Shown here piece after piece: positions 25,810 through 64,000 of a stretch of 64,000 nt of DNA. The notes beneath the pieces were generated by a model that searched no databases, was not told where the DNA came from, and worked only from the letters and a program-made list of their open reading frames with translations. The translations under genes were made by a program, and so were the position numbers. Numbering within the stretch: position 1 is the stretch's first letter; every line of letters starts with the position of its first letter. Origin of the DNA: Tubulanus polymorphus (lineage: Eukaryota; Animalia; Nemertea); NCBI RefSeq assembly GCF_964204645.1, contig NC_134030.1:16120110-16184109 (forward strand), given 5' to 3'.

Positions 25810-26016
25810 CTTAAAATATTCATATACATGAATAACATTTAAATTGACAGATTATTCAATATAAAAGTATATATTTACAACATTATTTCAATATTCATAT
25901 TTGTATGAGTTAGATGTTTAAACATTAAAAGTGTTAGTAAAGTGTGATTGAAATAATACATGATATAAATCATTGAACTTCTAAAATCAATTTAGTAAAA
26001 AAAATATGTATAATAA

Positions 26017-26559
26017 ATGGAATCAGAACAACCACAAACTATAAATATTACAAATAACACTGGCGTTATTAATATATACTACAAGAAGTGTTCTAAATGT
26101 GAATTAGATAAATTAGCTTTAACAGAATTTAGTAAGCGTAAGATTAGCAAAGATGGTTTTCAATATTGCTGTAAAACTTGTACTAAACTATATACCAAAC
26201 AATACCGAGAAGATAATAGAGAATCTTATAATGATTATATGACAGAATATATGAGAGAAAAATATCAAACAGATCTTAATTTTAGATTGAAACAATGCTT
26301 AAGATCTAGATTAACACAATTATTCAACAAAGAAACACATTCAGAAACACTATCTAATTTATTAGGTTGTTCAGATGAATTTTTCATTTCATGGATAATA
26401 TATCAATTCGATGATAAAATGAATATAGATAATTATGGTGAATACTTTCATATTGATCATGTGTTGCCGATTTCTAAATTTAACATGAATGATGAATACA
26501 ATAAAAAACTTATTTGGAGTTGGAAAAATTTAAGGCCTTTAGAAAAGAAGGAAAATTAA
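26017..26559 (+). CDS. HNH-type endonuclease with N-terminal Cys4 Zn ribbon (C-terminus probably frameshifted)
   Basis: KKCSKC...YCCKTC; NYGEYFHIDHVLPISKF...WKNLRPLEKKEN. Confidence 0.75.
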   Translation: MESEQPQTINITNNTGVINIYYKKCSKCELDKLALTEFSKRKISKDGFQYCCKTCTKLYTKQYREDNRESYNDYMTEYMREKYQTDLNFRLKQCLRSRLTQLFNKETHSETLSNLLGCSDEFFISWIIYQFDDKMNIDNYGEYFHIDHVLPISKFNMNDEYNKKLIWSWKNLRPLEKKEN

Positions 26560-27870
26560 ATCTAATAAACTAGATATACAGTTATATTTAGATCAACTGG
26601 ATAAAGCAAAGACATTTGTTGAATTATGGAACTCAACGCATAATGAAGAATACGTTGAAGCTTAAGCGCTTAGAAAACCGGTTACTCTCGATCTATGTCA
26701 AACCGCCTATATGCAATTGTATTAGGTTGTTTACAAAAACATCTGTCGCACGTTAATTGTATTAGGTTGTTTACAAAAACATCTGTCGCACGTTATATTC
26801 AGTTGAATAGGGTGTATCTCATTTGAATATTGATCGAATGTGCTATTTCAGTTGAAAAGGATTAATCAATAACATTACAAAGACACATCTGTTGCAGCGA
26901 CAGTGTTTAGCTAGTGAATAACTGGCAGTTATAAACGCGCGGCACATAAGCATAGGAACGCATAGGATATTCTCTCTATAAACACAATTTTAGAAGTTTA
27001 CAGTTATAAATGTAAGTACTGTTTTTGTTGTTATTAAGGCGTTGGGAAACGTTAAACATGTAAAACTTATCCTGGTAAGATGCGCCACGAGTGGCTATGT
27101 AGTGCTGTAATTAATATTTTACAACCACAACTTCAAGTTAGTTTTATTCTACGTTAGATATTTATCTTTTAGATAACAAAATGAAGGCCATTGAATCAAG
27201 AAAGTGAAGATAGATGGATGTGGAATCAGAAATTATGGATATTTCAACTCATGAGACTGTAGCCGTTTAGCCATACTGTATAGGCTTCCAATGCATTACG
27301 TTTGGCGGAATTTCAATTGCGTCATTAAGCTGTTGTTAATGACACACAGTGACAGATGTTGTATTATACTTTATTGATTCCTGCATTCCACGCATACCTT
27401 ACCGCTCGGCTGCCGAGCGGCTTGGAATGTGGAAATCGATAATGATTGTAGAATGAAATATATGTGTTTATGAAATAGTATTTCCACCAGTCGTTTCTTT
27501 GAATTTATTTTCAGTTTTAGGATTTATTATCGAGAATCCGAAATGACTTATCTGGACAGTTATAGTTACTGCTCCTAATAGATAGACAATAGTAGTGAGA
27601 TGGGGCCGTACGGCACCCACATGGTGATATTAAATCCTAATTTAAATAAAAAGTATTTAAAAAACAATAACTTCAACTAACTAGTGAATTCTATTATATT
27701 TTTAATACTTTCTTTTCAAAAGAGAATACTTTATATTTTGAATAGATTCAAATACGAATTCTTTAATTTCAAATAGCTAGTATCAGTAGTCAATACTAGA
27801 ATTCTTTAACTTTAACTATCTAGTATCAGAATACTTATAATATTTTTCTTATTAAATTTCTCTAATATAA

Positions 27871-28472
27871 ATGTCAAAGAAATCGAGTAAGAATAGTATT
27901 GATATTGAAAAACATTAGATGATTTGGGCATAAGTGATAATAAAGATACAGTTGTCTCTAATTCTATTCAAGTTAATAACAATATTGATTATGAATACTA
28001 TTTATATTGTAAGCATCATCTTCAATTATTAATTGCTGGCGGGAAATCTAAGGATTTCTTGGGAAAAATTTTAACTTATCAAGAACTAGATGCTATGAAA
28101 CCCGATAAAGTAATAAAATATTTTAAGATTTATGAAGAGGCAAGATTGGCCCGAATAGATGATTCTATTTCAGATGGTATTGTCAAATGTTATTCTAAGT
28201 TATGTAACCAGTTAATACCAATTGATGATGAAAATAAATTATATAGTGATTTGAAAACTGACTACTTAGTTATGACTGAATTACAAAAATGGGTTGGTTA
28301 TGCTTCATTCCAATTAGGATCGGTTATGACATTAATTTCTACTGGCGTCATAACATTTTCGAATATCAAACCTATGGAATATAAATCAGGTAAGAACGAA
28401 ACAGATGTACTACAACCAAACAGTGAAACAGAAAATGAATCAGAACAAAAATTAACTAAAATAAATGAGTGA
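27871..28472 (+). CDS. Polinton hypothetical protein; true start probably 27871 with an early frameshift
   Basis: TAAATG at 27868-27873; ORF 27924-28472. Confidence 0.6.
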
Positions 28473-28776
28473 TGGCGTTAAGAAAAAGCCTAGATCCGAG
28501 AAACAAATTAAATGGGCAAGAGAATTAGGTAAAAGATCTTCAGAATTCAAAAAAGCTACGAAAAAGAAATTAACTGATATAAATGAATCACCTGATATTG
28601 ATTCAAATAATAATCCATCTAATTCTTCTAATGCTGGAAGTAATTATAAATTATATATTACAATTGGATTAGTAACAGTTATTATATTATCTGGTGTAAT
28701 ATATAAATCAAAATTCAAATCTGATGATAAAGATGATTCCAATGACAATAAACCTATTATACCAGAAAATAAGTAA
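28465..28776 (+). CDS. Small basic single-TM Polinton protein
   Basis: KKPRSEKQIKWARELG; hydrophobic LYITIGLVTVIILSGVIY. Confidence 0.65.
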   Translation: MSDGVKKKPRSEKQIKWARELGKRSSEFKKATKKKLTDINESPDIDSNNNPSNSSNAGSNYKLYITIGLVTVIILSGVIYKSKFKSDDKDDSNDNKPIIPENK

Positions 28777-28830
28777 AATGATAAAGTCATTGAAACTAAA
28801 TCTAAATTATTATTAATGGATTAAAATAAG

Positions 28831-29922
28831 ATGAAAAAAGAACAATATTTAAGAGAGTTATATTATAACCTAGAGAGTGAAGTATCATATTCTAACGTTT
28901 CAGAATTATGGAATAAAATTAAATCTGATGAAGAAAATGGTAATATAAAATATAGTGAACTAACATTATGGTTACAAAATCAACCAACATATCAAATCCA
29001 CAAGAAAATGGATAAAACTTATTTAACAAGAAAAGTTATGGTTTCATACATCGATCAACAATGGCAAGCTGATTTAATTGACATGAAGAACTTAGAAGAA
29101 TACAACAAAGGATATTTCTGGATACTGAATGTTATAGACATATTCAGTAGATACGCATGGTCAATTCCAATCAAAAATAAAACTGGAATAGAAGTTACAA
29201 ATGCTTTTAAATCAATATTTAAAGAAGCTATTCCAGATAAGATACAATTTGATGAAGGTAAGGAATTTTATAACAAACATTTCAAGAAACTATTATCTGA
29301 TAACGATGTAGATTATTTTTCAACACACTCAGATAAAAAAGCATCTATTATAGAAAGATTTAATAAAACATTGAAAACTAGAATGTGGAAATATTTTACT
29401 GCTAATGAAACATATAAATATATCGATGTATTAGATGATTTAGTGAAAGGTTATAATAATTCTAAACATAGTTCTATAAATATGAAACCTATACAAGCTA
29501 GAAAAGAAGATAATTCGGAAATAGTTTGGAATAATTTATATGGCGCATTTGTTACACATGATTTCGGTAAACCTAAATTTAAAATTGGACAACACGTTAG
29601 AATATCTAAATATAGAAAAACCTTTTATAAAGGTTATACCCCTAATTTTACCGAAGAAATATTCAAGATTAAAAAGATAATATTAACTAAACCATTTGTT
29701 TATAAATTAGAAGATCTAAAAGATGAAGAAATATTAGGTTATTTTTATGAACAAGAATTATCACTTGTACCAAACCCAGATGAAATAGAATACAAACTAG
29801 AAAAAGTATTGAAAACAAAAACTCTTAAAGGAAAAAAGTATTCTTTGGTGAAATATAAAGGATATGATGATAAATTTAATGAATGGATTTTATCTAGTAA
29901 AATTAAAAGAATAAATGAATAA
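28831..29922 (+). CDS. Polinton retroviral-like (rve, DDE) integrase with C-terminal chromodomain
   Basis: QWQADLIDM, IDIFSRYAW, QFDEGKEF, SIIERFNKTLK; chromodomain YKLEKVL...LVKYKGYDDKFNEWI; ORF intact. Confidence 0.95.
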   Translation: MKKEQYLRELYYNLESEVSYSNVSELWNKIKSDEENGNIKYSELTLWLQNQPTYQIHKKMDKTYLTRKVMVSYIDQQWQADLIDMKNLEEYNKGYFWILNVIDIFSRYAWSIPIKNKTGIEVTNAFKSIFKEAIPDKIQFDEGKEFYNKHFKKLLSDNDVDYFSTHSDKKASIIERFNKTLKTRMWKYFTANETYKYIDVLDDLVKGYNNSKHSSINMKPIQARKEDNSEIVWNNLYGAFVTHDFGKPKFKIGQHVRISKYRKTFYKGYTPNFTEEIFKIKKIILTKPFVYKLEDLKDEEILGYFYEQELSLVPNPDEIEYKLEKVLKTKTLKGKKYSLVKYKGYDDKFNEWILSSKIKRINE

Positions 29923-30526
29923 AGATTTATTTATATTCGAACCGCATAATATGTTAGTTACTGGAGTAACCAATTGTAGTAAAACACATTTCATATTAGA
30001 TTTGTTAGAAACTATTTATAAGAATCATTTTGATAATATAATATTATTCTGCCCCACTTATGAAATGAATAAAACATATAATAGAGATATAGTTAAGATG
30101 AAAAAGTTTATTATATTAGATCCTAAAATAGTAAAAGAAAATTTAGATAATTGTATAAAAATAGCAATTGATACTTATAAAGGATCAAATACATTATTCA
30201 TTGTAGATGATTGCGCAAATTTACATGATTCAAAAGTGAGAGAAAGTGAGTTATGTTATGTAGCTTTCTCTGGGAGACATTTTGGGATAACAACATGGGT
30301 TTTAAATCAAAAATATAATTCAATTGTTAAAGACTTTAGGGAGAATATAAGATTTCTAGTTTTATTCTACAATAAAGATAAAAAATCTATGCAAAAATCA
30401 TTGGAAGAAAATCAAATTATACCTACTGAGTTACATGATGAATATATGAATAAATTAAAGAATAATAAAGGTTCAAAATTATTACTGAGACTACAATTTC
30501 CATATGAATATAAATTTATAAAATAA
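29915..30526 (+). CDS. Genome-packaging ATPase (A32/FtsK-HerA-like)
   Basis: Walker-A-like VTGVTNCSKT, Walker B LFIVDD, SGRHFGITTWVLNQKY, FRENI. Confidence 0.88.
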   Translation: MNKDLFIFEPHNMLVTGVTNCSKTHFILDLLETIYKNHFDNIILFCPTYEMNKTYNRDIVKMKKFIILDPKIVKENLDNCIKIAIDTYKGSNTLFIVDDCANLHDSKVRESELCYVAFSGRHFGITTWVLNQKYNSIVKDFRENIRFLVLFYNKDKKSMQKSLEENQIIPTELHDEYMNKLKNNKGSKLLLRLQFPYEYKFIK

Positions 30527-30554
30527 CTATTTATAATTTGGAATATTATAGAAA

Positions 30555-30788
30555 CTAAATTATATATCTATGTACTAGACGTACGAGTAAGAAAGTAAGA
30601 TTCTTACCAAGAAAGTAAGATTCTTAGATTCTTACGTACGTCTAGTATATAGATATATAAATTATTAAATGAATTATATAAAAATGAATAAATTATATGT
30701 TTTCTCTTAATAATAATAAAAATAGATTATATTATAACTATTTCTATACTTATATTAATAAGTTTATGTTTTTAATTTTTATGAAAAC

Positions 30789-30866
<78 letters not shown>

Positions 30867-30945
30867 CTAGATGTACGAGTAAGAAAGTAAGATTTCTTGG
30901 ATTCTTGGATTCTTACTCGTACGTCTAGTATATAGTTATATAAAT
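30555..30945. terminator. Paired hairpins flanking a (TA)n tract between convergent gene blocks; putative 3'-end signals
   Basis: actagacgtacgagtaagaa...ttcttacgtacgtctagt at ~30574-30646 and again at ~30866-30929. Confidence 0.45.
30792..30864. repeat. (TA)n microsatellite
   Basis: Uninterrupted TA run of about 70 bp. Confidence 0.95.
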
Positions 30946-30959
30946 TAGTTTTATAACAA

Positions 30960-32187
30960 TTATTCTAATTTTGTTTCTAATATATTTATAAAATCATCTC
31001 TGTTTATATCTAATTCACCAAAAGTCTTAGGTAGATTTATTAATTTTAGTCGAGTCATCTTTGAATGATAATTAGTAGGTATATTAGCTTTTTCTCTTAA
31101 TTTTTCTAAGTATTCATCAAAATCATCATTATCAAAACCAAATTGATATCCAAAATGTTTTATTAGATAACTTAAATCTATTTTTCTAATATATAATAAT
31201 TTATATATTTGTTCAGGATTATCTTCTGCATAAGCTAATAATTTATCAAATAACAACTTATAGAATATATAATATTGGTTAGTTTTAGGATTAAAATATT
31301 TGATATATTTATTTGGGTTATTTAACAATGGTATCATACTCACCATTTTATAAACATTAATTAGATGTAACTTTGATTTATAATGAGTATTTTCATCAAC
31401 AGGTTCAATTTTTTTATTACAATATTGACACGTTTTATTTCTTTCTATTTCTTCTAATTTCTTTTCATGTTCTTCTAACTTCCTTTCATTTTCGATATGC
31501 GCTTGAGATTTTTTATGTTTAGAAAAATTACTTTTAGAAATATCTAAATCACAAATGTTACAATGTTTTTTCACCAATTGTTTCATTATCATTAGTTTCA
31601 ATTGTATCAACATTATCTGTTATATTATCTATGGTATCATTTGTTTCAATTGTATTAACATTATCTATGATATTATCTATTATATTATTATCAGATATAT
31701 TATTATCATTATTATTCTTTTCTTTTTCTATATGTTTATTTGATTTCTTATGTGATGCCCAATTTTTATATGATATATATTTCTTACATACATCACAATA
31801 TTTTTCCTTTGTCTTTTTGGTTTTGATATCAGGTTCAATCTTATCATTATTAGATGTAGTAGGTATTACATTATTAGGTGTAGAGGGTATTACATTATTA
31901 GATGTAGAAGGTATTACATTATTAGATGTAGAAGGTATTACATTATTAGATGTAGTAGATATTGCATTATTAGATGTAGAAGGTATTACATTATTATCAA
32001 TTACATTACTTAAATTATCAACAACACCACTTTTATTATTATCGATTTCTATTAGTTTAGTTTTATAGATTTTGAAAATAGGATCAAATATCAAAGCTAT
32101 ATTACAAGGTATTACATAATATAAACCATCATTATTTTCATGTGTATCGATGTATGGAATATATTTATATACTTTACCTCCTTCCAT
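30960..32187 (-). pseudogene. Polinton C2H2 Zn-finger protein with internal NNVIPSTS repeats, split by a frameshift (ORFs 31558-32187 and 30960-31613)
   Basis: YCDVCKK...HKKSNKH, HCNICD...HKKSQAH, CQYCN...HYKSKLH; 24-bp repeats at ~31845-31995. Confidence 0.7.
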
Positions 32188-32219
32188 TTATTATATAAAT
32201 TTTTATTAAAGTTAAAATT

Positions 32220-33467
32220 TTAATACATAACACTATTCAATTGAGAATTTACAATATTTAATTGCGCGTCAGATATAATATAAATGTGCATTTTGAAATT
32301 TTTGATTCCTTTATTCTTTGTCATGAATAAGTGTATTCCATCTTTAGTGTTTTGTAATTTTTTTCCAGAACCATGTAATGAATTATCCTCTGTTGTTCTA
32401 AAATCTAACCATAATGCGTATTTATTACCGGTATAATAATCAATTTGATTAATATTACAATTTTCAGATGATTTCACTTTTTTATTCATAAAATGTTTTC
32501 TAATTTCTGGCCATTGATCAATCATTCTCATTCCTTGACAAAATATTTTATTTGCTATTCCTTCGATAGTTATTTCTACTTTTGTTATTTCAGGATTATA
32601 ATAATTATCAACATTTATTGCGCCATTAGTATATGTTTTAATGGTAGAAAATATTAATATACCTTTAATAGATCTTCTTGGGAAGTTAATATTCTCATTA
32701 ATAATTTCATCATTTGCATAAATAGTTACAGTTTTAAATTTATCAATATAATCATATAATAATGAAAATCCTTGATTGTATTTAGTTTGAATTATACTTG
32801 AAATATTTTCATCAGTTACTGTATCATATTCTAAACATATATTCGATAATTTATAACCCATATCTTTATTAACGCTAGATATTACAATTTTATTAACAGG
32901 AGCAAATGTTATTTCGAATATAACATCTTCTTGAATTGCGTATTTATATAAAGGTGCATTGTTATTTATCAATTCAAAGTCTAATGGAATTTTATATTTG
33001 CTTCCATATATACTTTTTATCAATTTATCTACAGCATTAGTTAATATTGCATTACGTGCTTCTGATCTTAATTTATTTTGGTTTTCTGATTGGATGCCTT
33101 GAAATATCATATTATTTCTATTTTCTTTAGTTAACCATAAATCTTTATAATGCATAAATAAATTATAATCATCTAATGAGAAAACTGTTTCTGGACCAAT
33201 CTTTATAGTTAATTTTTTAATCAAATATCTTCCAACATTATCAACAACATAATTATTATTATTACCGATTACTTTTATATCGGCTGATAAATAAATACTA
33301 TTTGGAACATAAAAAGTATTTTGTATTAATCTAGGAATTCTAACATATAAAGTTTCATCGGGATTAATATTTGAAGGATTATGTGTAATTATATGATGTG
33401 ATCTTTCTGCTTTAATAGCATTAGATATTCTATGATTCTTAGAAGGATTGATATAACTCCCACTCAT
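32220..33467 (-). CDS. Putative major capsid protein (double jelly-roll), copy A
   Basis: 415-aa beta-rich intact ORF; most conserved large gene between copies; size and position fit a Polinton MCP; fold is inferred. Confidence 0.7.
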   Translation of the reverse strand: MSGSYINPSKNHRISNAIKAERSHHIITHNPSNINPDETLYVRIPRLIQNTFYVPNSIYLSADIKVIGNNNNYVVDNVGRYLIKKLTIKIGPETVFSLDDYNLFMHYKDLWLTKENRNNMIFQGIQSENQNKLRSEARNAILTNAVDKLIKSIYGSKYKIPLDFELINNNAPLYKYAIQEDVIFEITFAPVNKIVISSVNKDMGYKLSNICLEYDTVTDENISSIIQTKYNQGFSLLYDYIDKFKTVTIYANDEIINENINFPRRSIKGILIFSTIKTYTNGAINVDNYYNPEITKVEITIEGIANKIFCQGMRMIDQWPEIRKHFMNKKVKSSENCNINQIDYYTGNKYALWLDFRTTEDNSLHGSGKKLQNTKDGIHLFMTKNKGIKNFKMHIYIISDAQLNIVNSQLNSVMY

Positions 33468-33487
33468 TTATTTAACAAAAAAATTAA

Positions 33488-34956
33488 TTATTTATTTTTA
33501 ATCATGTTTACTAGCCCAAAAATAATTGCACTTACAACTGTAATTAAAAATAAAATAATATGTTCAGCAGCAAAGTTAATAATGTTTCCTGCAGATTTCA
33601 ATATAAAACCAACAATTGATGCAATAATTCCTGGCAATGCTGCAGCAGATTTCTTTGATAGTTCCCATAAATATTTTGCTAATTTCTTTAAACCATCCTT
33701 AACTTTATCTTGTATAGGATTATTATCATTCGGGGGTTTATCCGGTTTATTGGGAGTAGGAGTAGATTTTAAAGCATTTGATATAGCTAAACCAATTGTT
33801 GTAAATAACATAGTTACAGCTGTTAGAATTGAAAGAATTGTTATTCCTTCTAATTTAAATAATAATTTTATTCTATCTTTCAATGATATTTCAGAATTTG
33901 GTTTAATCAACAAATCTTTAAAAATAACTTTTAATCTATTAATATTAAAATCATATGATTTTAATAATAATTTAATTTCTTCTTTCTGTACTTCTAAATT
34001 ATCTTTTAAATTATTAATTTCTTTTTCTAATCGTAATTCTTTTTGCCTATATTCTATTTCATCAATTACTTGATGATCTAAATCAGACTTTAATTGTTCT
34101 ATTTCTTTATTTTTATCAGTAAATTCTTTTTCTAAAGTTCTAATTTTAAAATCTCTTATACTTTTATCATGCGCAATTTTATCAGATGCATGTCTAATAC
34201 TTTCAATTTCTCTAATTGCTTCAACAGAAAATATATTATTTAAGTCTTCTAATGTTTGATCTGTTGCATCAAGTAATCCATTCGGTAAAAGTTTTTCAAT
34301 TGGAACTTCATTTGATTTAAGTTTACTAGTTTTGGAAGTTTTATTCTGTTCAGAAATTGTTTCTGTTTCTAAATTATTTTTGATTGTTTCAAATAATTCA
34401 TTAATTCTTTGTTTAAATACTCTTTTATTTTGATCTATTTCTTCTTGTGTTACATCTTCTATTTCATTACTATTTCTTATTCTCTTAATTCTAGATAGTA
34501 ATGAGTCAGTCTTAAGCAAAGTTAATTTTGCTATTATTTTTCTTCTTTTTTATTAGAGATATTAATATAATAATCCGAATCATCTTTCAAACTATAATAA
34601 TATTAACCATCTAAAAACTTTAATTCTTTTACTAAAAGTCTGGCGCCTCTATCATTTATATTATATCCAGAATCTTTAAATTCATGTTGAAAATTATACA
34701 TAAATTCATAATTTTCTATATGTTTTCTTTCTAAACCTGGGTCAAAATTTTCAATAGGTATTCTCGATCCAGTTCTTCTATCATGTTCATCTGTTGATGG
34801 GGCTTTAGAACCACTATCTGCTAAATTAGAATTATATGCTGATTCATTACCATCATCAATATTATTATCAGCAGTGATATAATCATCATTGTTAGTATTG
34901 GCATTATCATTATTTCCCCTGTTTTCCATTTCATAATCTTCTCCACCTTCTGCCAT
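33488..34956 (-). pseudogene. Acidic N-terminus, coiled-coil, C-terminal multi-TM protein; one gene broken near 34603
   Basis: Copy A reads FLDG-stop where copy B reads ILDGEYYY; TM segments ITILSILTAVTMLFTTIGLAI and LPGIIASIVGFIL...IILFLITVVSAIIFGL. Confidence 0.7.
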
Positions 34957-34978
34957 TTACATAATAAAAAAATTAAAA

Positions 34979-35317
34979 TTAAAAATATAATATTCCTCCT
35001 ATAACAATTCCTATACAAGTTAAAGCTAATTTAGCATTTTCATGGGATTTATTATCATCATTTAGTTTAATTATATCATGTCGAATATTATCAGTTCTAA
35101 AATTTTCTGATGTATTGTAATCTTTTATTTTAGAATCATTATTTAATTTAATATTCTTAGTTTTAGTTTCTGTTGATTGAATATGTTTTTTATTTTTTTC
35201 ACCTTCCATTAATTTTGGAGCAGTAATAATCTTTTTATTTATATCATTTAATCCAAATGAATTATTTATTGTTGCAGTTTTAATTAGATTATTATAACCA
35301 ATTATTTTTCCCATCTT
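34979..35317 (-). pseudogene. 3' part of the LINE-disrupted Polinton gene (C-terminal TM anchor)
   Basis: Continues 41043-42018; copy B reads NDSVLKMGNIIGY without interruption; ends LALTCIGIVIGGILYF. Confidence 0.85.
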
Positions 35318-35640
35318 TAATAAGAAATGTTGTAAATGGCGTCCGGCTGTTAAGATGTGTTGGTACAGTGGAGATTTAAAGTTTCATTTCGATGTCCTTC
35401 CACACTTGCTTGATTTATTAGATCTACTCAATCTATGCAGTGCTGTTCTTCTGAATGAGACAACGAAGTGTACAAACAAATAAGGTAACTTTTTACTGGT
35501 ATTTAGTGGTTCTATAGTATTAATCTATAGATATCGTCGATAGTCTGTCCTTAAGTCGTTCACACCGTAGTTGCCAAACGTTACCATAGAGACGTTGTGT
35601 ACCTGTCAAAAAGTCACGGTCGACTGGAGATAATCTAAGT

Positions 35641-36602
35641 ATGGGTAGACCGAAGAAAGATCGCTCGACGAAAACCTGCCACCGCTACCGCAGATAACAA
35701 AGGCACAACGCCGAGTAACAATAACGTTGAACCCGCGTCAAATACTCAAAGCGCTCCGAAACAACAAACTCTGATCACGCCAGTCACTAGTACCCCGACT
35801 GCAGCCTCAGACCCCGAATCGAGGAAAAGATTCCCCTCTGAAGAATTCTCACCTCGTGAAGGTATAAAAAAACCCAATATTCCTCCAAACGTGAATCAAC
35901 AGGCAACGAGGCCACATAATGAAAATTTCCCCGTAGACGAAATTGCGAGCACCGTCTCGAACCTGCTAAATAACGAGGAATCAACCGCGGGTCTAGTGAA
36001 CCGAATCGTGTCGGCCATAAAGTTCACATTTCAAAATCAACTGGAACATCTGGTAAAAAACGATCGATGATCAAAACGAAGTCATAGCTGATCTTAGTGC
36101 GAAACTGGATCACCAGGAACAATATTCCAGGCGAAACAATATCATTGTAAACGGTATAAAAGAAAATTCTTCCGAAAACACGGACCAAATAATTCTAGAT
36201 CTCGCACGTAAGATCATGCCTGATGACGCTCCCGCGATGGAACTCCGAGATATCGATCGATCTCATCGCCTCGGGCCCAAAAGAGATGGAACAAACCGCC
36301 CGATTATCTGTAAATTCGTCACTCACCGAGCGCGGCAATACGTGTTGGTTAATCGTAAAAAGCTCCCTAAAGATGTTTACGCTAATGAAGACCTGACGAA
36401 AAGACACCAGGCGATTCTGTACGAAGTCCGAAAATTATGGAAATCTAAGCGTATTTACGGTTTTTACGTTCGCGATGGTAAAATACTCGTCATTAAAACC
36501 GAGCGCGAGAAAGCGATTGAAATCAGCGACCATTCATCAATATCGGCTCTCAACGAGGAATCAACCCCATCAGCGAACCCGAACGACACCACATACTACT
36601 AA
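35641..36602 (+). pseudogene. LINE ORF1 (coiled-coil and RRM-like), frameshifted; start approximate
   Basis: EQYSRRNNIIVNGIKE upstream of IDRSHRLG...RPIICKF...YANEDLTK. Confidence 0.75.
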
Positions 36603-42018: not shown

Positions 42019-42034
42019 TTATATAATTAAAAAA

Positions 42035-42469: not shown

Positions 42470-42547
42470 TTATTTAGCAAAAAAATTACTTATTAGTAAA
42501 TCTATACGCTACAAATATAACAATAACAGTTCCACCTAAAATCCAAA

Positions 42548-43155: not shown

Positions 43156-43171
43156 TTATTTATCAAAAAAA

Positions 43172-43497: not shown

Positions 43498-43514
43498 TTA
43501 TATAGTGAAAAAAA

Positions 43515-44276: not shown

Positions 44277-44289
44277 TTATTTTACATAT

Positions 44290-52690: not shown

Positions 52691-52928
52691 CTTAAAATAA
52701 TCATATACATGAATAAAATATATATGAATAACATATAAATTGATAGATTATTCAATATAAAAGTGTGAGTAAAAAAGTAACGAGTAATTAACGAGCTCTT
52801 ATAGATAGATATATAGATATATTTTAAACATATTTCAATATTTATATTTGTATGAGTTAGATTTTTAAACATTAAAAGTGTTAGTAAAAGGTGATTCATA
52901 AAATAATAAATAAATGAATAAAATATAA

Positions 52929-55900
52929 ATGAATAAAATGTGTAAAATTAATTTAAAAAAAAAATCTAGTATTAAAATGGAAGCAAATAAGTACTACTGT
53001 TCAACATTTAAAATCAATATAGATAAATCCCAAAAATCAAGACACAATAAAACTAAAACACATTTAGAGAATAAATTGAAATTAGAATATGAAGATGATA
53101 TATTAGAAACTAAATTAGATGAATTAAAGAATGAAAAAGAAACATACAAATGTGACACATGTAATCAATCATTCAGTGATAAAAGATATTATAATGAACA
53201 TTTAAATTCTAAAAGTCATATTAGAAATATGAATAATGATATTTTACGTGAAGATTATTTTGATAATGACAATGATAAGAAACATAAGACAATTAAAAGA
53301 ATAAGAAATAAATTAAACAATAAAAGACCATACATGGAAGATGTAAGAAATTATATTAATTCATTAGATAATAAAAAATATATAGAAATAACCGAAGCAT
53401 TTAAAAGTGATATTGGTCCAGCTGCTATCGAGTTTAAATTTCATAAAGGTAAAACGTTAGAAGAAAATAAAAAACATTTAGAAAATATGGAAAATATTAT
53501 AAAAATAATAACTGATGTTGAATACCCTAAAATTAGTTTATCTTCCAAAGTAAAGTTTATAAAATCTGAAGATAAACCAATATATAATATAAATTCTCAT
53601 TCACAACATATTATATCTAAACAACATATAGATGATAAATTAGATAAATGTTATAATGAAGTAAAAACTAAAATAGAAGAGAAATATTTTGAAGGATCAG
53701 GTTTAATATTTGATGAAATGATATTTATGACTTTACATGTTTATAACATAAAATATAATAAGTTAACTAAATCAAAACCAATAGATGAAAATAATGTATC
53801 ATATTATAAAGAACCAGACATTGAAGCATCGAGTTATATTAAACTACCATTTAAAACTAATGCTGTAATAAATGTACAAAATTCTGATGATAAATGTTTT
53901 CTATGGGCAATTATAAGTTGCTTACATCCAACAGAAGATATTACACATAGTTTTAGATTAACAAATTATAAACAATTTGAAAATAATTATAAGATAGATA
54001 AGTATCCTGTTAGAATTAAAAATATCCCAAAAATAGAAAGAGATAATAATTTAAGAATAAATGTATTTGATTTAATCAAATTAAAAAAGGCAACAATATA
54101 AAACATTATACATTAGATAAAACCTTTATACCTATCAAAAGATTATGATTCAAATGATGTTATAGATATACTATATTATGAAAATCATTATATGTGGATT
54201 AAACAAATCGATTTATTTTTTAAACCAGAAAATGATCATAAAATATATCTTTGCAGAAAATGTTTACATAAATTCAGTAATGAAAGTACATTATCAAATC
54301 ATAAACAATTATGTGAAAATCATGATTATTGTAAATTAGTTTTACCAAATGAAAAAGATAAAATATTAGAATTCAAAAAATATGATTACAAAAATAAAAT
54401 ACCATTTGTTATATATGGAGATTTTGAATCATTAAATAAAGAATTAACTGATCAAGATAGAAAAGAAATATATTATAAAAGAAAGAAATTAAATTCTAAT
54501 GGAAATGATATAATTGATTATTCAGATCCCCTAATAACAAATACAATTAAAAAGATTCATCAATCAGCTGCTGCTTTCGGGTTATATATTGAATCTGATT
54601 ATCCAGAACTAATCAAAAGTGAGTATTATCATTATAGAAATGGAAATGTTATCAATCATTTTTGTGACTTATTAATTGAATATGAAATAAGATTTAGTAA
54701 ATTATTGAATACAAATATAGAAATTATAATGACAGAAGAAGATAAAGAAGAATTTGTGTTTACAGGTAAATGTTATTATTGTGAAAAGATATTTAATTAT
54801 AAAGATAAAAAAGTAAGAGATCATGATCATTTGAATGGAAAGTTTAGAGGCGCAGCACATGAGAATTGTAACTTACAAGCTAAGAAAATTAACCATTGTA
54901 CCTGTTATATTTCATAATCTATCAGGATATGATGCACATTTATTTATCAAACAGCTATGCCATAAAATAGAAGAAATTAATAATGAAATAGAAAGATTAA
55001 ATTCAAATAGATCAAAAGATAAAATACCAACTTATAAATTTAAAATGTTAGCTAGAACATCTGGGAATTATATATCTTTCCAATTTGGTTGCCTAAGATT
55101 TATAGATTCATATAGATTTTTAAACAGTTCATTAGATAATTTATCAAAATCATTAGTTGATGATGAATTAAAAATATTAAAACAACATTACCCAAATAAT
55201 GATGATTTCCAATTAATGAGATATAAAGGAGCGATTCCATATTCTTTCTATAAAAATCATAATGATTTCAATATAACTGAACTTACAAAAGAACAATTCT
55301 ATGATGAATTAAAAAATGAATATGTTAAAGATGAAGTATATAATAAAACATTGAATATTTGAAATCATTTCAAAATAGAAAATAGAAAACTATGGACAAT
55401 TAGTAGATTTATATTTAGAATCAGATGTATTATTATTATCGGATATATTCGAAAGGTTTAGAGATGTAAACCTAAAATATTTTAACATTGATCCTTGCCA
55501 TTGTTATTCATCACCAGGTTTAACATGGGATTGTGGATTAAAATTTACAGATATAAAAATGGATTTGTTAACAAATATAGATCAATTATTATTATTTGAA
55601 AAATCTATAAGAGGAGGAGTTTCAGGTGTATTAGGGGATAGATATTTCAATGTAGATGATAACCCTGGATATAAGTTATTATATATAGATGCAAATAATT
55701 TGTATGGTTGGGCAATGATGGAACCACAACCTTATGGAGTATTTGAAAATAATGACAAATTTGATTGGAAGAAAAGAATTCTAGATATTGCAGATGATTC
55801 AGATACTGGTTACTTCTTTGTTGTAGATTTAGAATATCCTGAAAACATTAAATTTAAATCTAGAAATCTAGCTTACTGCCCCGAACATAAAACTGTAACT

Positions 55901-56996
55901 CATGAAGAATTATTAAATCATCAAAAAAGAATTAAACCCGAAAATCATATTCATAAAAAAGTTAATGGTAACTCAGGAAGATAAATAGAATTATGTAGTA
56001 CATTATAGAATGTTTAAGTTTTATTTGAATCAAGGAATGGTTCTAAAAAAAGTACATAGATATATTTCATTTAGTCAATCTAAATGGTTAGAAAAATATA
56101 TAGATTTTAACACCAAACAGAGAACTGAAGCTAAAACTGATTTCGAGAAAGATTTCTTCAAGTTAATGAATAATGCATTCTATGGTAAGACTTGTTAAAA
56201 TATTAGAAATAGAAATGATATTGAGTTAGTTAGTAATGGTAAAAGAATTAGACATTTACAAACATATCCTAAATTTATAGGTAACAGGATATTTGATGAA
56301 AATTTAGCTGCAGTTAAAATGAGAAGAACATCTATGAAATTTAATAAACCAATTTATGTTGGAGCATCAGTTTTAGAATTATCAAAGTTATTAATGTATG
56401 AATTCTATTATAATGTATAACAACCTCATTTTGGAGAAAAACATATAGAAATTCTATACTTTGATACAGATTCTTACATATTAAAGATAAAAACTGATAA
56501 CATAACTGATGATTTAAAAACATTAAAACATCATTTTGATTTCAGTAACTATCCAAAAGATCATGAATTGTTTAGCAATGATAATAAAAAAGTTCCTGGT
56601 AAATTCAAAGATGAATTAGGTGGTGAAGAAATGATTGAATTCATTGGTATTAGATCTAAAATGTATTCATATAAAACTAAAGAACATGAAGCTAAAAAGT
56701 TAAAAGGAATAACCAAAAGTGTAGTAGAAAAGAATATTCATTTCAAAGATTACATCAATTGTATATTCAATGAAGAAGTTAGAAAACATAAGATGAGATG
56801 TTTAAGATCTGAGTACCACGAGATGTTTATTGAAGAAATTGAAAAGGTTAGTTTGAATCCATTTGATGATAAAAGATATATTTTAGATGACGGAATTCCT
56901 ACAGTTGCATATGGTTGCAATTTAGATGAATACTTAAAATTTAAAAGAGAAGAAACAAAAGAGAATGAGATTATGAAAGGGATTCTAACGTGTTAA
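52929..56996 (+). pseudogene. Protein-primed family B DNA polymerase (pPolB) with N-terminal Zn fingers; multiple frameshifts and stops
   Basis: VIYGDFES, VRDHDHLNGKFRGAAH, FHNLSGYDAH, FIDSYRF, LLYIDANNLYGWAM, KLMNNAFYGKT, YFDTDS, PGKFKDE. Confidence 0.95.
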
Positions 56997-57025
56997 TCAA
57001 ATTTTAATAAAAATATGTTTTATAA

Positions 57026-57379
57026 ATGGAGAGTAAACAAGCAAACAGTGAGAACAACAAATTTTTTCTAGATAGAATAAAAGATACTTCAAATGTCAAA
57101 TCAATAGATTATAAATTTAAGAAGTTAAAAGAATTAACAATCCATAAGAAATATCTAATTACAGATATTGTTACAGTTACTAACAAATATGGAGATAAAT
57201 TAGTTATACACTTAGGATATGAAGGGTTAAAAGGAAATACATATAAATTCGGAACATATTTACCTGATAGATTTCATAGATTATCAAGTGAAGATTTAGA
57301 AGAATTATGTTCTGATGATTTCTATTTCGTATACTAAGGTAAGAATGAAAAAGGGCACCATGAAATAGATTTCGAATAA
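57026..57379 (+). pseudogene. Small protein downstream of pPolB with a premature stop at 57337
   Basis: TAAATG start; FKKLKEL...VTNKYGDKLV...YLPDRF; copy A has a sense codon at the stop. Confidence 0.6.
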
Positions 57380-57393
57380 AATATGTAAAATAA

Positions 57394-58152
57394 ATGGTTG
57401 AATTAAAAGAATACAGAATATTTGTTGATTCAAGAAGACTTACAAATTATAAATCACATAATTTACTAGTACAATTAGATAGAGAATTTAAGAATTGTGT
57501 TGATTAAAAATTAGTTAATATAAGTTTATGTAATTCTTTTTACAATGTATCTGATAAAACTATTGAGCATAGAGTCTTTTTAATTCTTGATAGAAATAAA
57601 AGTAAATGGTTTCATCTTTATCTTAAAGCAGGATTTTATAATTTAGATACATTAGCGCAGGAATTTAATAGAAGAGCTCGTTTAAAAATGGGTGCATCTG
57701 CTGGATTTGGATTAAGACTGATTAAAAATGATAGCTCTGATAAAATAAGAATAGAATTAGGTAAAGAAGATCAACATCAATTTCTAGTTAAAAAACCTTT
57801 AGCTAAAATTTTAGGAATAACCCCAGATGTAAGGATACGCAATGCTGATCCTACACCAAATATAATGGCTTTTACACACTTTTATATTTATAGCAATTTA
57901 ATCGACCCTACAAAAACATTCGGAGCAACTAAAGATATAACTTGTAATTCTAGTATATTAAATATTTTACCATTGAAGAATGTTAAAGAATTTGGAATGC
58001 AAATAAATTAAAATTTAACAGAATGTGATTTTAAGCCTTGTATTTCCCGATTTAATAATTTCAAATTAGAAGTAAGAAATCATAATGGATATTTAATTGA
58101 TTTAAATAATTTTCCTGTAATTTATGAATTAGTTATAAGATGTAGAGAGTAA
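57394..58152 (+). pseudogene. Putative minor capsid protein, copy B, with in-frame stops
   Basis: Homologous to 43515-44276. Confidence 0.7.
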
Positions 58153-58167
58153 TTTTTTGATATACAA

Positions 58168-58470
58168 ATGAATATAACAGTAGGGCCGAGTATATGTTTT
58201 GGGTTTGATTTCAAACATGGTAAAGAAATGAGAATTAAACTAAATGATGTAATTACGGATATGAAAAGTAAATCACTTAACAATGCATCAATTATTAATA
58301 ACGAAAATTATAATATAGAAAAAGTAATTGATTTAATTAAAACGCCTTTAGAATATTATGAATTAAATGAAGATGGAATTATTGAGGATATTAAAAACAT
58401 ATCATAAAAAAAGTAATGAAATAAATGTTGAATTAATCATAAATAAGTTAACTAAATATTTTAAGATAGT
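58168..58470 (+). pseudogene. Homolog of the 43497 gene
   Basis: MNITVGPSICFGFDFKHG. Confidence 0.65.
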
Positions 58471-58489
58471 AATTTTTTTTGATAAATAA

Positions 58490-58718
58490 ACGAGTGATAA
58501 TAAGTGGATAATAACTGGATTATATAATGGAGCATTACTATCAGTTGGAACTGTTGGTTATTCAATGGTATTAAAAAAAAGTATTTAAAATGGGAAGTGT
58601 TAATGTTGATAGATTTGATATAAATGATATCTTAAAATTAACATTAGCAGTAACTTTATCTAATTTAACAATTGATTATTTAGAAAAAATAATATATTCC
58701 TCCCATATAAATGCGTAA
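58490..58718 (+). pseudogene. Homolog of the 43155 gene; start mutated to ACG and frameshifted
   Basis: taaacgagtgataataagtgg versus taaatgagtgataataagtgg in copy A. Confidence 0.65.
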
Positions 58719-58734
58719 TTTTTTTACTAAATAA

Positions 58735-59097
58735 ATGGCATCTGCAATTATAACTATTATAGGATCGGCAATTGTTAACGCTTTAGCATTTACTGGTGGT
58801 GGTTATATATTTAAGCATATTGATAAAAATGGTTCATTATCAGAACAAAAAAGACATAACTTGGCATTAGAGAAATACAATAAAGCAGCAGAAGAATATA
58901 GAGAAAAGAGACAAAACTATATGGATTATATTAACAAAGAATTATATGATCAGAAGATTTCACATAGAGATTTTCAATCAGTTGATGATGCAATGAGTTT
59001 ATATAACGCGGTAACCAATAAAGAAAAATTACATCTATACAAACCTAAATTATCAGATTATTTGGCCCAAGTAAAGAACAACAGAAATATGAAATAA
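58735..59097 (+). CDS. Polinton membrane/coiled-coil protein, copy B
   Basis: 119 of 120 aa identical to the 42548-42910 ORF. Confidence 0.7.
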   Translation: MASAIITIIGSAIVNALAFTGGGYIFKHIDKNGSLSEQKRHNLALEKYNKAAEEYREKRQNYMDYINKELYDQKISHRDFQSVDDAMSLYNAVTNKEKLHLYKPKLSDYLAQVKNNRNMK

Positions 59098-59175
59098 TTT
59101 GGATTTTAGATGGAACTGTTATTGTTATATTTGTAGCGTATAGATTTACTAATAAGTAATTTTTTTGCTAAATAA

Positions 59176-59582
59176 ATGGATGATAAAGTTGATAATATTG
59201 ATATTATTCCTCGTGATATAAATAAAACTAAATTAAAAATATATTTAGAAAAACATACATTAGAATTTGAAAGTGACTTGAAGATAAAAAAGAAAAAATA
59301 TTTAAAAAGTAAAATTATATATTATTTTATTATTAGTGGTTCGGTTACAATTAGTTCTGTAATAACATTTCTAGCAATATTCAGTCCATTAACACCTTAG
59401 CTATATCAATTGGTGTGTTAGGATTAAGTTCAAGTGTTTTAACCGGTATAAGTTCAAAATCAAATATAAAAAGTAATAAAGAAAAAATTAAAACTAATAT
59501 AAAAGAAATATAACAGTTATATAACGGTCATATAACAGTTGAAGAACAAGATAAATTATTAAAAGAATTAATAAATTATTAA
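59176..59582 (+). pseudogene. Two-TM protein, copy B, disrupted
   Basis: Homologous to 42035-42469; stop at 59400. Confidence 0.7.
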
Positions 59583-59598
59583 TTTTTTAATTATATAA

Positions 59599-60981
59599 AT
59601 GGTAGATAGTTTTCCAAAAGCTTTCCAATATAATAAATCAATTGAATATAATATTCCAGCAATAAATTTTAATAAAGATATTTCATATAGAAATGAAGTA
59701 TTAGATTCATTAACTAATTTAGAAATTTATGTTACTGAGACTAATAATTTAAATGCAAAGATAGAAAATATATTTCATGTATATTTAATTAATTTAAAAA
59801 AATTGAAAGATGAAAAACAATGGTTATTAAAATCTAATATGAAATATTGGCAGAACCAATTAAATTTTGCTGTTTATTGTGCAACAACATTGTGCGGAAT
59901 TAGTTGGAATGATCATTTGAATAATTCTAAATATAAATTAATTCAAAGTTTATTTAGATTTCATACATACTTTCAAATCAGAATAATATTAAATTAATTA
60001 GAGACCCCTTTACCGGGATCTAGGTATTTTAAAGAATTAGATAATAATATTAATTTATCAAAGTTTTATAAAATTTGCAATGAATTTAATATAGATATAA
60101 ATAATTCTGATTTTAGAACAAAAATTGGAACAATAAGATCACTTCCTTGCCCTGAAAATGTTGCAGCATATTGTACACTTCCAATACCATCTAATAGCTT
60201 TTATACTATCTATAATAATAAATTAGGTTATGGTAAAATAGAAACTAAGGATTTAGAAACATTAAATTTCAATAAATTCCCGAAATTCGATGATAATTTA
60301 AAACAAGAAAATAATAATGGTTGGGTTTATTTCATTTTAAAAAATAGTGAAGGTTTTACAAAATCAGGCATACAAAGAATAAATCAATCAATTAGAACTT
60401 ATTTGATATGTATTCTAGGATCACAATTTGAAACAAGATCCCCAATAATTGGAAATTTAAATACATCATTTGATACACAGAAACAATTCAAAGTATTATT
60501 TGAAGATTCAATTCATGATGATAAAAATAGATCGATTCCAGAAAATATAGTAAGATATCAAAATTATTTAGATAAATCACATATTAGATTAAATTATTGT
60601 ATAGGCCCTAATCTATTCATTATTTCTAATGATTCAGTATTAAAGATGGGAAACATAATTGGTTATGATAATCTAATTAAAACTGCAACAATAAATAATT
60701 CGTTTGGATTAAATGATATAAATAAAAAGATTATTACTGCTCCAAAATTAATGGAAGGTGAAAAAAATAAAAAACATATTCAATCAACAGAAACTAAAAC
60801 TAATAATATTAAATTAAATAATGATTCTAAAATAAAAGATTACAATACATCAGAAAATATTAAAACTGATAATATTCAACATGATATAATTTAAACTGAT
60901 AATGATAATAAATCCCATGAAAATGCTAAATTAGCTTTAACTTGTATAGGAATTGTTATAGGAGGAATATTATATTTTAGA
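59599..60981 (+). pseudogene. Conserved C-terminally TM-anchored Polinton protein, copy B, with stops
   Basis: WQNQLNFAVYCATT; uninterrupted across the LINE insertion point of copy A. Confidence 0.75.
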
Positions 60982-61002
60982 TTTTAATTTTTTATTATAT
61001 AA

Positions 61003-62435
61003 ATGGAAGAAGATATTCCAATGGATGACATGGGAAATAATAATGAAGGATATATTGATGATGATTATAATGATGCAGAAACTAATATTGATAATGACGA
61101 TGAATCAGCATATAATTCTAATTTAGCAGATAGTGGTTCTAAAGGACTATCAACAGGTGAATTTGATAGAAGATCTAAATCGAGAATAAATCCTGAAAAT
61201 GAAAATCAAGATTTAGTAAAACAAAATTTAGAATATAATGAATTTATAAATACATTCAAACCTATATTTGAAAATTCTGGATATAATATCAATGATAGAG
61301 GCGCTAGACTTTTAGTACAAGAATTAGAAATTTTAGATGGCGAATATTATTATCATTTGAAAGATGATTATTATATTGGTATCTCTTATAAAAATCAAAA
61401 CAAAATATTAGCAGAATCAACCTTGGAAAAATTAGAACCAGATAGAATTAAAAGAATAAGAAATAGTAATGAAATAGAAAATGTAACACAAGAAGAAATA
61501 GAAAAGTATTTAAACAAAGAATTAATGATTTATTTGAAAAAATCGATAATAATTTAGAACCAGAAAGAACTTCTGAACAGAATATAACTTCCAAAACTAG
61601 TAAACTTAAATCAAATAAAGTACTAATTGAAAAACTTTTACCAAATGGATTACTTGATGCAACAGATCAAGAATTAGAAGATTTAAATATATTTTCTGAT
61701 AAAGCAATAAGAGAAATTATTAGTATAAGACTTGCATCTGATAAAATTGCACATGATAAAAGTATAAGAGATTTTAAAATTAGAACTTCAGAAAAAGATA
61801 GAACTGATAAAATTAAAGAAATAGAACAACTAAAATTAGATAGAGATAATAAAGTTATTGAAGAAATCGAATTTAAAAAAAGAAATGCATATTTAGAAAA
61901 AGAAAAAGATGATTTAGAATATAACATAGAATTTCAGAAAGAAGAAATTAAATTATTATTAAAATCATATGATTATAATATTAATAGATTAAAACTTATT
62001 TTTTAAGAGTTAATATTAAAACCAGATTCTAAAATATCATTAAAAGATGGAATAAAATTATTATTTAAATTAGAAGGTATAACAATTCTTTCAATTCTAA
62101 CAGCTGTAACTATGTTATTTACAACAATTGGTTTAGCTATATCAAATTCACTGAAATCTACGCCTACTCCCAATAAACCGGATAAACCCCCAAATGATAA
62201 TAATTCTATACAAGATAAAGTTAAGGATGGTTTGAAAAAATTAGCAAAATATTTATGGGAACTATCTAAAAAATCTGCTGCAGCTTTACCCGGAGTTATT
62301 GCGTCAATTGTTCGTTTTATATTGAAATCTGCAGGGAATATTCTTAACTTTGCTGCTGAACATATTATTTTATTTTTAATTACAGTTGTAAGTGCAATTA
62401 TTTTTGGATTAATGAATATGATAAAAAATAAATAA
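61003..62435 (+). pseudogene. Acidic/coiled-coil/multi-TM protein, copy B, frameshifted
   Basis: Homologous to 33488-34956. Confidence 0.72.
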
Positions 62436-62455
62436 TTAATTTTTTTGTTAAATAA

Positions 62456-63704
62456 ATGAGTGGGAGTTATATAAGTCCTTCTAAGAATCATAGAATATCT
62501 AATGCTATTAAAGCAGAAAGATCACATCATATAATTACTCATAACCCTTCTAATATTAATCCTGATGAAACTTTATATGTTAGAATTCCTCGATTAACGC
62601 AAAATACTTTTTATGTTCCAAATAGTATTTATTTATCAGCTGATATAAAAGTAACCGGTAATAATAATAATTATGTTGTCGATAATGTTGGAAGATATTT
62701 GATTAAAAAATTAACTATAAAGATTGGTCCAGAAACAGTTTTCTCATTAGATGATTATAATTTATTTATGCATTATAAAGATTTATGGTTAACTAAAGAA
62801 AATAGAAATAATATGATATTTCAAGGAATCCAATCAGAAAACCAAAATAAATTAAGATCAGAAGCACATAATGCAATATTAACTAATGCTATAGGTAAAT
62901 TGATAAAAAGGATATATGGAAGCAAATATAAAATTCCATTAGACTTTGAATTGATAAATAATAATGCACCTTTATATAAATACGCAATTCAAGAAGATGT
63001 TATATTCGAAATAACATTTGCTCCTGTTAATGAAATTGTAATATTTAGCGTTAATAAAGATATCGGTTATAAATTATCGAATATATGTTTAGAATATGAT
63101 ACAGTAACTGATGTAAATATTGCTAGAACAATTCAAACTCAATACAATCAAGGATTTTCATTATTATATGATTATATTGATAAATTTAAAACTGTAACTA
63201 TTAATGCAAGTGATGAAATTATTAATGAGAATATAAACTTCCCAAGAAGATCTATTAAAGGTATATTAATATTTTTTACCATTGCAACATATACTAATGG
63301 CGCAATACAGGTTGATAAGTATTATAATCCTGAAATAACAAAAGTAGAAATAACCATCGAAGGAATAGCAAATAAAATATTTTGTCAAGGAATGAGAATG
63401 ATTGATCAATGGCCAGAAATTAGAAAACATTTTATGAATGAAAAAGTAAAATCATCTGAAAATTGTAATATTAATCAAATTGATTATTATACCGGTAATA
63501 AATATGCATTATGGTTAGATTTTAGAACAACAGAGGATAATTCATTACATGGTTCTGGGAAAAAAACTACAAAATACAAAATATGGAATACAATTATTCA
63601 TGACAAAGAAAAGAGGAGACTAAAATTTCAAAATGCACATTTATATTATATCTGACGCGCAATTAAATATTGTAAATTCTCAATTAAATAGTGTTATGTA
63701 TTAA
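62456..63704 (+). pseudogene. Putative major capsid protein, copy B; frameshift near 63560
   Basis: Near-identical to 32220-33467 up to LHGSGKK, after which the frame diverges. Confidence 0.72.
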
Positions 63705-63753
63705 GTGTTATGAAATATTAAAATTTTAACTTTAATAAAAAATCTTATATTAA

Positions 63754-64000
63754 ATGGAAGGTGGAATATATGAAATACGAACTCCAAGTGAAATGATATC
63801 AGATATATATTATATATTACCTCATGATGAATACAGTAAGTATTTTTGAGAATACTTTAATCAATTCAAATATAGAATAAGTAAAATAAAAGATAATATT
63901 GAAACTAAAATAGAAAATAATATTGAACCTAAAATAGAAGATAAGAATGATATTGAATCTAAAATAGAAGATAATATTGAAACTAAAATAGAAGATAGTA
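63754..64000 (+). pseudogene. Start of the positional homolog of the 32187 gene, with 24-bp repeats
   Basis: TAAATG MEGG start; aatattgaaactaaaatagaagat-like repeats. Confidence 0.5.

Follow-up and report, generated by a model that had tools for sequence, protein, structure and literature searches.

A clade-specific, two-part TAAATG signal, a probable promoter, in Polintons of the nemertean Tubulanus polymorphus and its resemblance to poxvirus late promoters

Introduction

Mavericks, or Polintons, among them those named 'adintoviruses', carry a protein-primed family B DNA polymerase (pPolB, PF03175), an rve integrase, an A32/FtsK ATPase and a double jelly-roll capsid gene; their termini start with AG, and they occur in many chromosomal copies, as set out in the accessible text of Starrett et al. 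(PMC8502044). Here we analyse three damaged copies (A, B and C) of such an element, capsid gene included, in a 64-kb stretch of the genome of the nemertean Tubulanus polymorphus (contig NC_134030.1, positions 16,120,110 to 16,184,109; hereafter the window, 64,000 nucleotides numbered from 1). The element is a Maverick/Polinton by its PolB, rve integrase, packaging ATPase, double jelly-roll capsid and inverted termini, and it has in common with the described elements all the features just listed. It differs from them by its clade-specific bipartite TAAATG promoters. Nor was an adenain-type protease detected, there being no Pfam match among the open reading frames (ORFs) of the window and of three long sister contigs; none of the copies is complete, and a protease of divergent sequence could escape. 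The word 'promoter' is not found in the accessible text of Starrett et al.

The Polinton-like viruses (PLVs) AHEV_PLV1/2 and CBEV_PLV1 have been found packaged with entomopoxviruses (Barth et al. 2024, PMC11296320). Compared by description only, these are likewise small Polinton-like viruses and proposed poxvirus parasites, but they have a cysteine protease of their own, carry a tyrosine recombinase or none in place of rve, and were physically found with their helper; 'promoter', 'motif' and 'transcription' have no occurrence in the accessible part of that paper. Virophages and the pacmanvirus transpoviron carry helper-matched promoter motifs, according to the accessible parts of the reports (10.1101/2025.10.09.676808, 10.64898/2026.07.28.741278, PMC11788076). 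Mavirus and the endogenous mavirus-like elements (EMALEs), together with this transpoviron, are integrating or episomal parasites with helper-type promoters, and in this they are comparable to the element; however, their hosts are protists, their motifs are of Cafeteria roenbergensis virus (CroV) or asfar type, their helper is known and reactivation has been shown. The element, in contrast, has a likely animal host and a Polinton-type capsid, and we found no helper for it.

The yeast elements pGKL1/2 are linear and protein-primed, and are not known to have a capsid or integrase. They are comparable in their poxvirus-type TAAAN initiator and poly(A) leaders, but their RNA polymerase and capping enzyme are products of their own genes and their upstream element is of early type, as described in the accessible text of PMC6211774. 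We found no report of pox-type promoters in Polintons in the literature outside subscription journals and bioRxiv supplements. The promoter code described below is real and clade-wide in one Polinton lineage, and a signal so sharp and so restricted makes it testable how animal Polintons are expressed and whether they need a helper.

TAAATG at gene starts in the window

The original prediction, made from the letters of the window, was that the genes of the element start at a TAAATG of poxvirus late type. All 22 positions that it named are an ATG directly after TAA on the expected strand, and in copy A the motif stands, as had been claimed, at 13 of 14 recognisable starts, the exception being the integrase with TAAGATG. 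The expected chance level of ~6% per gene agrees with the measured frequency, TAA preceding 71 of 1028 ATGs of the element (6.9%); the corresponding counts are 16/258 for out-of-frame ATGs on the coding strand and 34/1367 for ATGs of the host. Against this background, the probability of 13 in 14 is ~1e-14. Both overlaps in which TAAATG lies inside an upstream ORF ending in INE-stop are real.

Two other claims held in part. The nine starts listed for copy B do carry TAAATG (9/11 in total), but seven of them are not independent, because copy B is ~90% identical to copy A, from which it differs in orientation; only PolB and g57026 are new, independent genes. The motif is not intact in the copy B homologues of genes 43155 and 43497, and the PolB start of copy C reads TGAATG. 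As for an excess at starts over internal ATGs, the in-frame control is invalid (0/71 by construction), because an in-frame TAA is a stop, while the excess over out-of-frame ATGs stands; these and sister elements were used as controls instead. The genes and copies are as follows, with the T-tract and A-tract forms of the start explained further below.

25400..44622, Polinton copy A; one end intact, split by a long interspersed nuclear element (LINE), PolB end absent
26017..26662, plus strand, HNH/endonuclease VII-like gene; frameshift close to its end; TAAATG with A-tract
27871..28472, plus strand, g27871, conserved family gene; broken close to its start; TAAATG
28465..28776, plus strand, g28465, small gene; TAAATG within the upstream ORF (INE-stop)
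28831..29922, plus strand, rve integrase with chromodomain; no TAAATG in copy A
29915..30526, plus strand, A32-like packaging ATPase (Pox_A32, E 4e-10); TAAATG within the integrase ORF
30960..32187, minus strand, zinc-finger-like gene; two overlapping ORFs; TAAATG with A-tract
32220..33467, minus strand, major capsid protein of copy A, double jelly roll; ORF intact; T7-tract and TAAATG
33488..34956, minus strand, g34956, conserved family gene; coiled coil and hydrophobic C-terminus; broken; T7-tract and TAAATG
34979..42018, minus strand, g42018, conserved family gene; split by the LINE; T-tract and TAAATG
35323..41037, plus strand, LINE retroelement insert with endonuclease and reverse transcriptase
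42035..43497, minus strand, four small genes (42469, 42910, 43155, 43497); each with T6-7 tract and TAAATG
43515..44276, minus strand, candidate minor capsid protein; TAAATG with A-tract
50599..51540, plus strand, copy C; terminus with 194-bp palindrome and PolB start, truncated; right limit approximate
52422..64000, plus strand, Polinton copy B; continues past the window edge; many stops and frameshifts
52929..56996, plus strand, protein-primed family B DNA polymerase; broken into several pieces; TAAATG start
57026..57379, plus strand, g57026, small gene adjoining PolB; TAAATG with A-tract
62456..63701, plus strand, major capsid gene of copy B; broken close to its 3' end; T7-tract and TAAATG

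Restriction of the motif to one clade

A capsid profile search returned 230 metagenome loci; the 80 best were retained, and 3 genome contigs were added. In a quick IQ-TREE phylogeny of the 64 capsids with 300 or more residues covered, with SH-like approximate likelihood ratio (SH-aLRT) support, no bootstrap and no virophage capsids in the set, the window capsid groups with loci L001-L014 (SH-aLRT 99). The ATPase tree (40 rows, six near-duplicate loci left out) agrees on this clade with a support of 90; L031 and L079 were assigned to it by identity (49-58%), not by tree. The nearest relatives retrieved have Polinton gene content.

For nine core genes, the starts of the orthologues were then counted; N-truncated ORFs and ORFs with less than 20 nt upstream were excluded, near-duplicates retained. 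TAAATG is found at 33 of 39 core-gene starts in the clade, whose GC content ranges from 20 to 44%, and at 6 of 6 in L053-55/L062, but at only 1 of 166 in all remaining Polintons, where A stands at -3 in 104/166. Sisters with GC of 0.40 or less have none in 38 starts under the same ORF definition, AAA preceding the ATG in 20 of these. Because sisters as AT-rich as the clade lack TAAATG, base composition does not explain it, and the motif persists at GC 0.40-0.44 (L007, L008). It is also retained across 51-76% capsid identity and rearranged gene orders and on accessory genes, the L003 kinase being one, and the integrase of the relative L001 does start with TAAATG. Since near-duplicates were kept and relatives share ancestry, p-values for these counts overstate independence. 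We conclude that TAAATG is a trait of this clade and not a product of base composition.

Some further loci deserve mention. Four more distant elements (L053, L054, L055, L062) have TAAATG at 6/6 core starts; the capsids of the last three are 33-35% identical. Of these elements only L055 was included in the trees, where its long branch falls outside the main clade, so that a second origin or an older trait may be involved. Gene starts read TATAATG/TATATG-like in L056, L072 and L078 and TAAAATG in L027, L081 and L082, possibly other promoter codes; African swine fever virus (ASFV) late promoters are TATATA. In L009 (360-409), L010, L011 and L055, head-to-head genes lie 14-30 nt apart, and a single segment makes up two back-to-back TAAATG promoters; because sisters share such tight arrangements, we dropped them as evidence. 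The kinase gene of L003 (10343-10981; deoxynucleoside kinase, E 1.7e-31) has the same promoter. Capsid and integrase homologues P0045, P0219 and L081-L083 lie on short contigs labelled Bartonella sp. or prokaryotic metagenome-assembled genome, and are probably contaminating eukaryotic DNA.

An upstream core and TAAATG as a two-part signal

The start motif extends beyond TAAATG. Over 56 non-redundant TAAATG starts (from 70), A is found at -18 and -17 in 40 and 35 cases, T at -13 and -12 in 40 and 50, and A at -4 in 47. The signal is therefore bipartite: an A-run that switches to T, with a near-fixed T at -12, then a spacer and TAAATG. A T-tract at -16 to -10 is present at 22/56 starts versus 5/144 non-start TAAATG sites. 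When a profile was trained only on 26 starts of nine distant loci, all of which have T or C at -12, it told the 15 starts of the window apart from 49 TAAATG sites that are not starts (p=1e-5), and T at -12 occurs in 14/15 of the former and 17/49 of the latter. In the window, the T-tract form is found at seven genes, namely that of the capsid and six neighbours, the A-tract form at five and neither form at three, and among the closest relatives, though not clade-wide, the form is mostly consistent per gene.

Runs of T6+ and A7+ are strongly depleted in the coding DNA of the clade (observed/expected, O/E, 0.12 and 0.31), against 0.81 and 0.79 in AT-rich sisters. A T5NT terminator was considered and rejected: it lies within 60 nt of the gene end in 4/36 cases, and other T- and A-runs are depleted too. 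Splice-donor avoidance did not separate the clade from its sisters.

Comparison with poxvirus promoters

According to the accessible text of PMC11980589, TAAAT(G) spans the start codon in the late promoters of vaccinia, where a conserved T stands ten bases upstream in the company of weaker Ts, and intermediate promoters have TAAA with an upstream region that prefers A. Published accounts, as far as accessible, also describe a T-containing core 5-7 bp ahead of TAAAT (PMC5294985), the retention of TAAATG in salmon gill poxvirus (PMC4542343), and slippage at TAAAT that gives poly(A) leaders in vaccinia and in yeast virus-like elements (VLEs; PMC6211774). The element has in common with vaccinia late and intermediate promoters TAAATG at the start codon, a T about ten bases upstream in a T-run, and an A-rich variant. 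Its T peak lies at -12, as compared with -13 by the wording of the review, a match within one base where the counting convention is unclear. It differs in using the signal for nearly all of its genes, PolB included. The likeness is to published descriptions and not to poxvirus sequences.

Transcription genes and the search for a helper

In keeping with the original remark that no RNA polymerase gene is visible, there was no match to an RNA polymerase subunit, a capping enzyme, TBP, TFIIB or a late factor when ORFs of the window and of the clade, including part of the capsid, ATPase and integrase orthologues, were scanned against Pfam, PHROGs and NCBIfam. Scans of a viral contig collection with the capsid, g42018 and the integrase returned no relative. 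A helper search with the T-tract pattern gave 7 loci, none enriched in TAAATG; the back-to-back pattern gave at least 120 loci (80 with flanks), the best among the matches listed being non-pox and like nucleocytoplasmic large DNA viruses (NCLDVs). HNH is the only protein common to the element and the listed back-to-back loci.

Copy number and ends of the element

Repeats abound in the eukaryotic DNA of the window, whose GC content is ~35-45% but falls to 20-30% in islands at 26-35, 41-44.6 and 52.4-64 kb. These islands code for the chromodomain-bearing rve integrase, the A32-like ATPase and, in fragments, a PF03175 polymerase. Element DNA is ~77% AT, and its genes are densely packed. In one DNA read run of matching species label, coding DNA of the element is covered 552-615-fold and adjoining unique DNA 15-21-fold (one bin ~5), a ratio from which we estimate ~30 copies. 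At 52422, 1145 reads exit the element into varied flanks, which fixes the end of copy B at this position. Copies A and B share terminal sequence at opposite ends, as expected of terminal inverted repeats (TIRs) with AG...CT ends; no copy in the window is two-ended. Each element end begins with an imperfect palindrome of 194-410 bp, that of copy C lying at 50599-50792 and the other two being:

25400..25809, terminal 410-bp imperfect palindrome (AG...CT) that opens the TIR of copy A, z -20.7
52422..52690, terminal 269-bp imperfect palindrome of copy B, z -18.4

The inner arms differ in sequence between copies while pairing is kept, and in the sister element L065 the contig opens with a palindrome of 206 bp. 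Such palindromes might make fold-back priming possible even though the polymerase is protein-primed. Palindromes in TIRs are described, in the accessible part of the literature, for Halocafeteria virophages and PLVs, mostly without pPolB.

Proposed mechanism and alternative explanations

We consider it probable, from sequence evidence, that a helper NCLDV infecting the same cell transcribes the element with its post-replicative RNA polymerase. The two-part signal would then be the promoter for the helper polymerase, and the element a virophage-like parasite. By analogy with vaccinia and the yeast VLEs, transcription would start inside TAAAT, leaving nearly no templated 5' untranslated region and a 5' poly(A) leader made by slippage. 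Naked DNA inside a poxvirus factory is not known to be transcribed from any but intermediate and late promoters, which would be why PolB, too, has a promoter of this type. Integrated copies are presumed silent until helper infection, as with mavirus and EMALEs, and both the dependence on a helper and a route from the nucleus to a cytoplasmic factory would be part of this scheme.

Dependence on the polymerase of a large DNA virus, which the original prediction implies, draws support from the motif, its restriction to one clade, the upstream core and the lack of any match to transcription machinery; the assignment to poxviruses specifically is less firm. Non-pox NCLDV contigs have TAAATG at 4/11 to 9/17 of their long ORFs, proportions that are inflated since the contigs were picked by this pattern; they include L148, with capsid and VLTF3, and L146, with TBP and Erv1, and they lack a T peak at -12 (16/44). 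IIV-6, an invertebrate iridescent virus, has an AAAAT core 15-19 nt ahead of the start site, a similar distance, according to the accessible text of PMC5294985. Because TAAATG is used by these contigs, the IIV-6 core is similarly spaced and no helper was found, a poxvirus is not secured. A pox-like helper is a tentative assignment, and another NCLDV (irido-, asfar- or marseille-like) an unlikely one; between pox-like and irido-like, we regard the former as somewhat more likely.

Further observations weigh against helper transcription or limit its support. By the tree, the motif has one origin or two, and the loci are therefore not independent tests of it. The split between T-tract and A-tract forms does not follow gene function strictly: in L007 and L012-14 the capsid promoter is not of T-tract form, and that of g57026 differs between the window and L003. 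Because the forms are inconsistent across the clade, we do not claim two temporal promoter classes. AATAAA on the coding strand is depleted about equally in the clade (O/E 0.85) and in AT-rich sisters (0.78), so that this test shows no sign of escape from nuclear processing. The pattern searches of viral sequences gave no helper, and a divergent factor encoded by the element itself may exist among the small proteins or in g42018.

Such a factor is central to a scheme without a helper, in which nuclear host Pol II is steered to a clade-specific initiator by a protein of the element or of the host. The element does integrate into nuclear DNA, its zinc-finger gene, g42018 and g27871 are candidate sources, and TBP-like genes are labelled in some viruses of the MELD kind (midsize eukaryotic linear dsDNA) in the accessible text of Starrett et al. 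(PMC8502044). No ORF scanned here matched TBP or TFIIB, however, and the large genes without a match are also present in sisters that lack the motif. Pol II starts ~30 nt downstream of a TATA box. If the motif acted as such a box (TATAAA), transcripts would thus begin within the ORF; if it acted as an initiator, they would have almost no leader and, with T at -3, a poor context for translation. We regard host transcription as rather unlikely. It is more doubtful still that the promoters are a relic, shaped by a past helper and now inherited unused by copies that spread as transposons or are dead. All three window copies are damaged and no helper was found, yet the motif has been retained through the sequence divergence, GC range, gene rearrangements and accessory genes described above, and the ~30 similar copies with many flanks indicate a fairly recent spread, which needs expression.

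Two other schemes are very improbable. A translation signal, stop-start coupling or chance in AT-rich DNA would suit densely packed genes in DNA of this composition, but equally AT-rich sisters have 0/38, the TAA closes an upstream frame of at least 60 codons in 2/49 starts of relatives and in 0/15 of the window, and the fixed core at -12 to -18 lies outside the Kozak context; with the held-out profile, these counts largely refute it. An autonomous cytoplasmic element with a pox-type RNA polymerase of its own has a precedent in yeast pGKL, where protein-primed replication, a TAAAN initiator and 5' poly(A) leaders occur together (accessible text of PMC6211774). In the present element, PolB is the sole ORF long enough for a large polymerase subunit, no ORF has such a match, and an integrase is present in what is a chromosomal element.

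Transcription by a helper polymerase, if correct, would allow Polinton lineages that are likely to depend on a helper to be told by sequence from those that the host is likely to transcribe, and predicts that invertebrates have a pox-like or other large DNA virus yet to be discovered. It is possible, though we put it forward with reserve, that this widespread, animal-integrated Polinton clade consists of endogenous virophages of poxvirus-like viruses, with promoters that record unsequenced invertebrate poxviruses and chromosomal copies that could act as an inducible antiviral reserve, in the manner of mavirus in protists. Endogenous virophage biology would then extend from protists to animals.

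Other features of the locus

The intact capsid ORF of 415 residues is predicted to be a double jelly-roll capsid protein: its structural model (predicted local distance difference test, pLDDT, 87.7) matches the folds of Paramecium bursaria chlorella virus 1 (PBCV-1), iridovirus and mavirus capsids (best E 1e-16). The integrase matches PF00665 (E 2.6e-9) in addition to its chromodomain, and its named homologues, at 43-55% identity, include nemertean, coral and amphioxus sequences, which points to an invertebrate host. The PolB of copy B matches PF03175 (E 4e-4), with a tblastn alignment spanning residues 19-926 of a sister PolB. We read the two zinc-finger ORFs as one gene because they are single ORFs in L001 and L002. 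The gene at 43515..44276 is probably a minor capsid protein, a lead given by atlas neighbours in Nucleocytoviricota/Preplasmiviricota clusters. The largest element protein without a fold match is g42018, which is common to motif-less sisters; its model (pLDDT 76) had no Foldseek match at E<=1e-3 in BFVD, a best VIA Z of 4.0 and no atlas match, and the best E against PDB sequences was 0.25. The best match in a profile search with g27871 had E 0.74, the homologue search with g57026 gave no match, and window positions 25000-64000 had no Rfam match. In the sister element L021, a 1209-residue gene in the PolB position (9970-13596) has AAA_30/AAA_19 helicase matches and no PolB Pfam match.

One non-coding feature occupies the gap where the ATPase and zinc-finger genes converge:

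30546..30956, two hairpins flanking a (TA)n run

A hairpin of variable sequence 3' of the ATPase stop is also found in clade members and two sisters (L001 3735-3822, L004 3183-3255, L018 1932-2004, L020 2496-2570) and is a candidate 3'-end signal. Outside the element, two inverted arrays of a 59-bp satellite (563-3646 and 13477-15113) lie on either side of ORFs whose domains are Josephin-like (7115-8956) or cysteine-rich (10388-11488), and the segment that they bound is probably a large DNA transposon.

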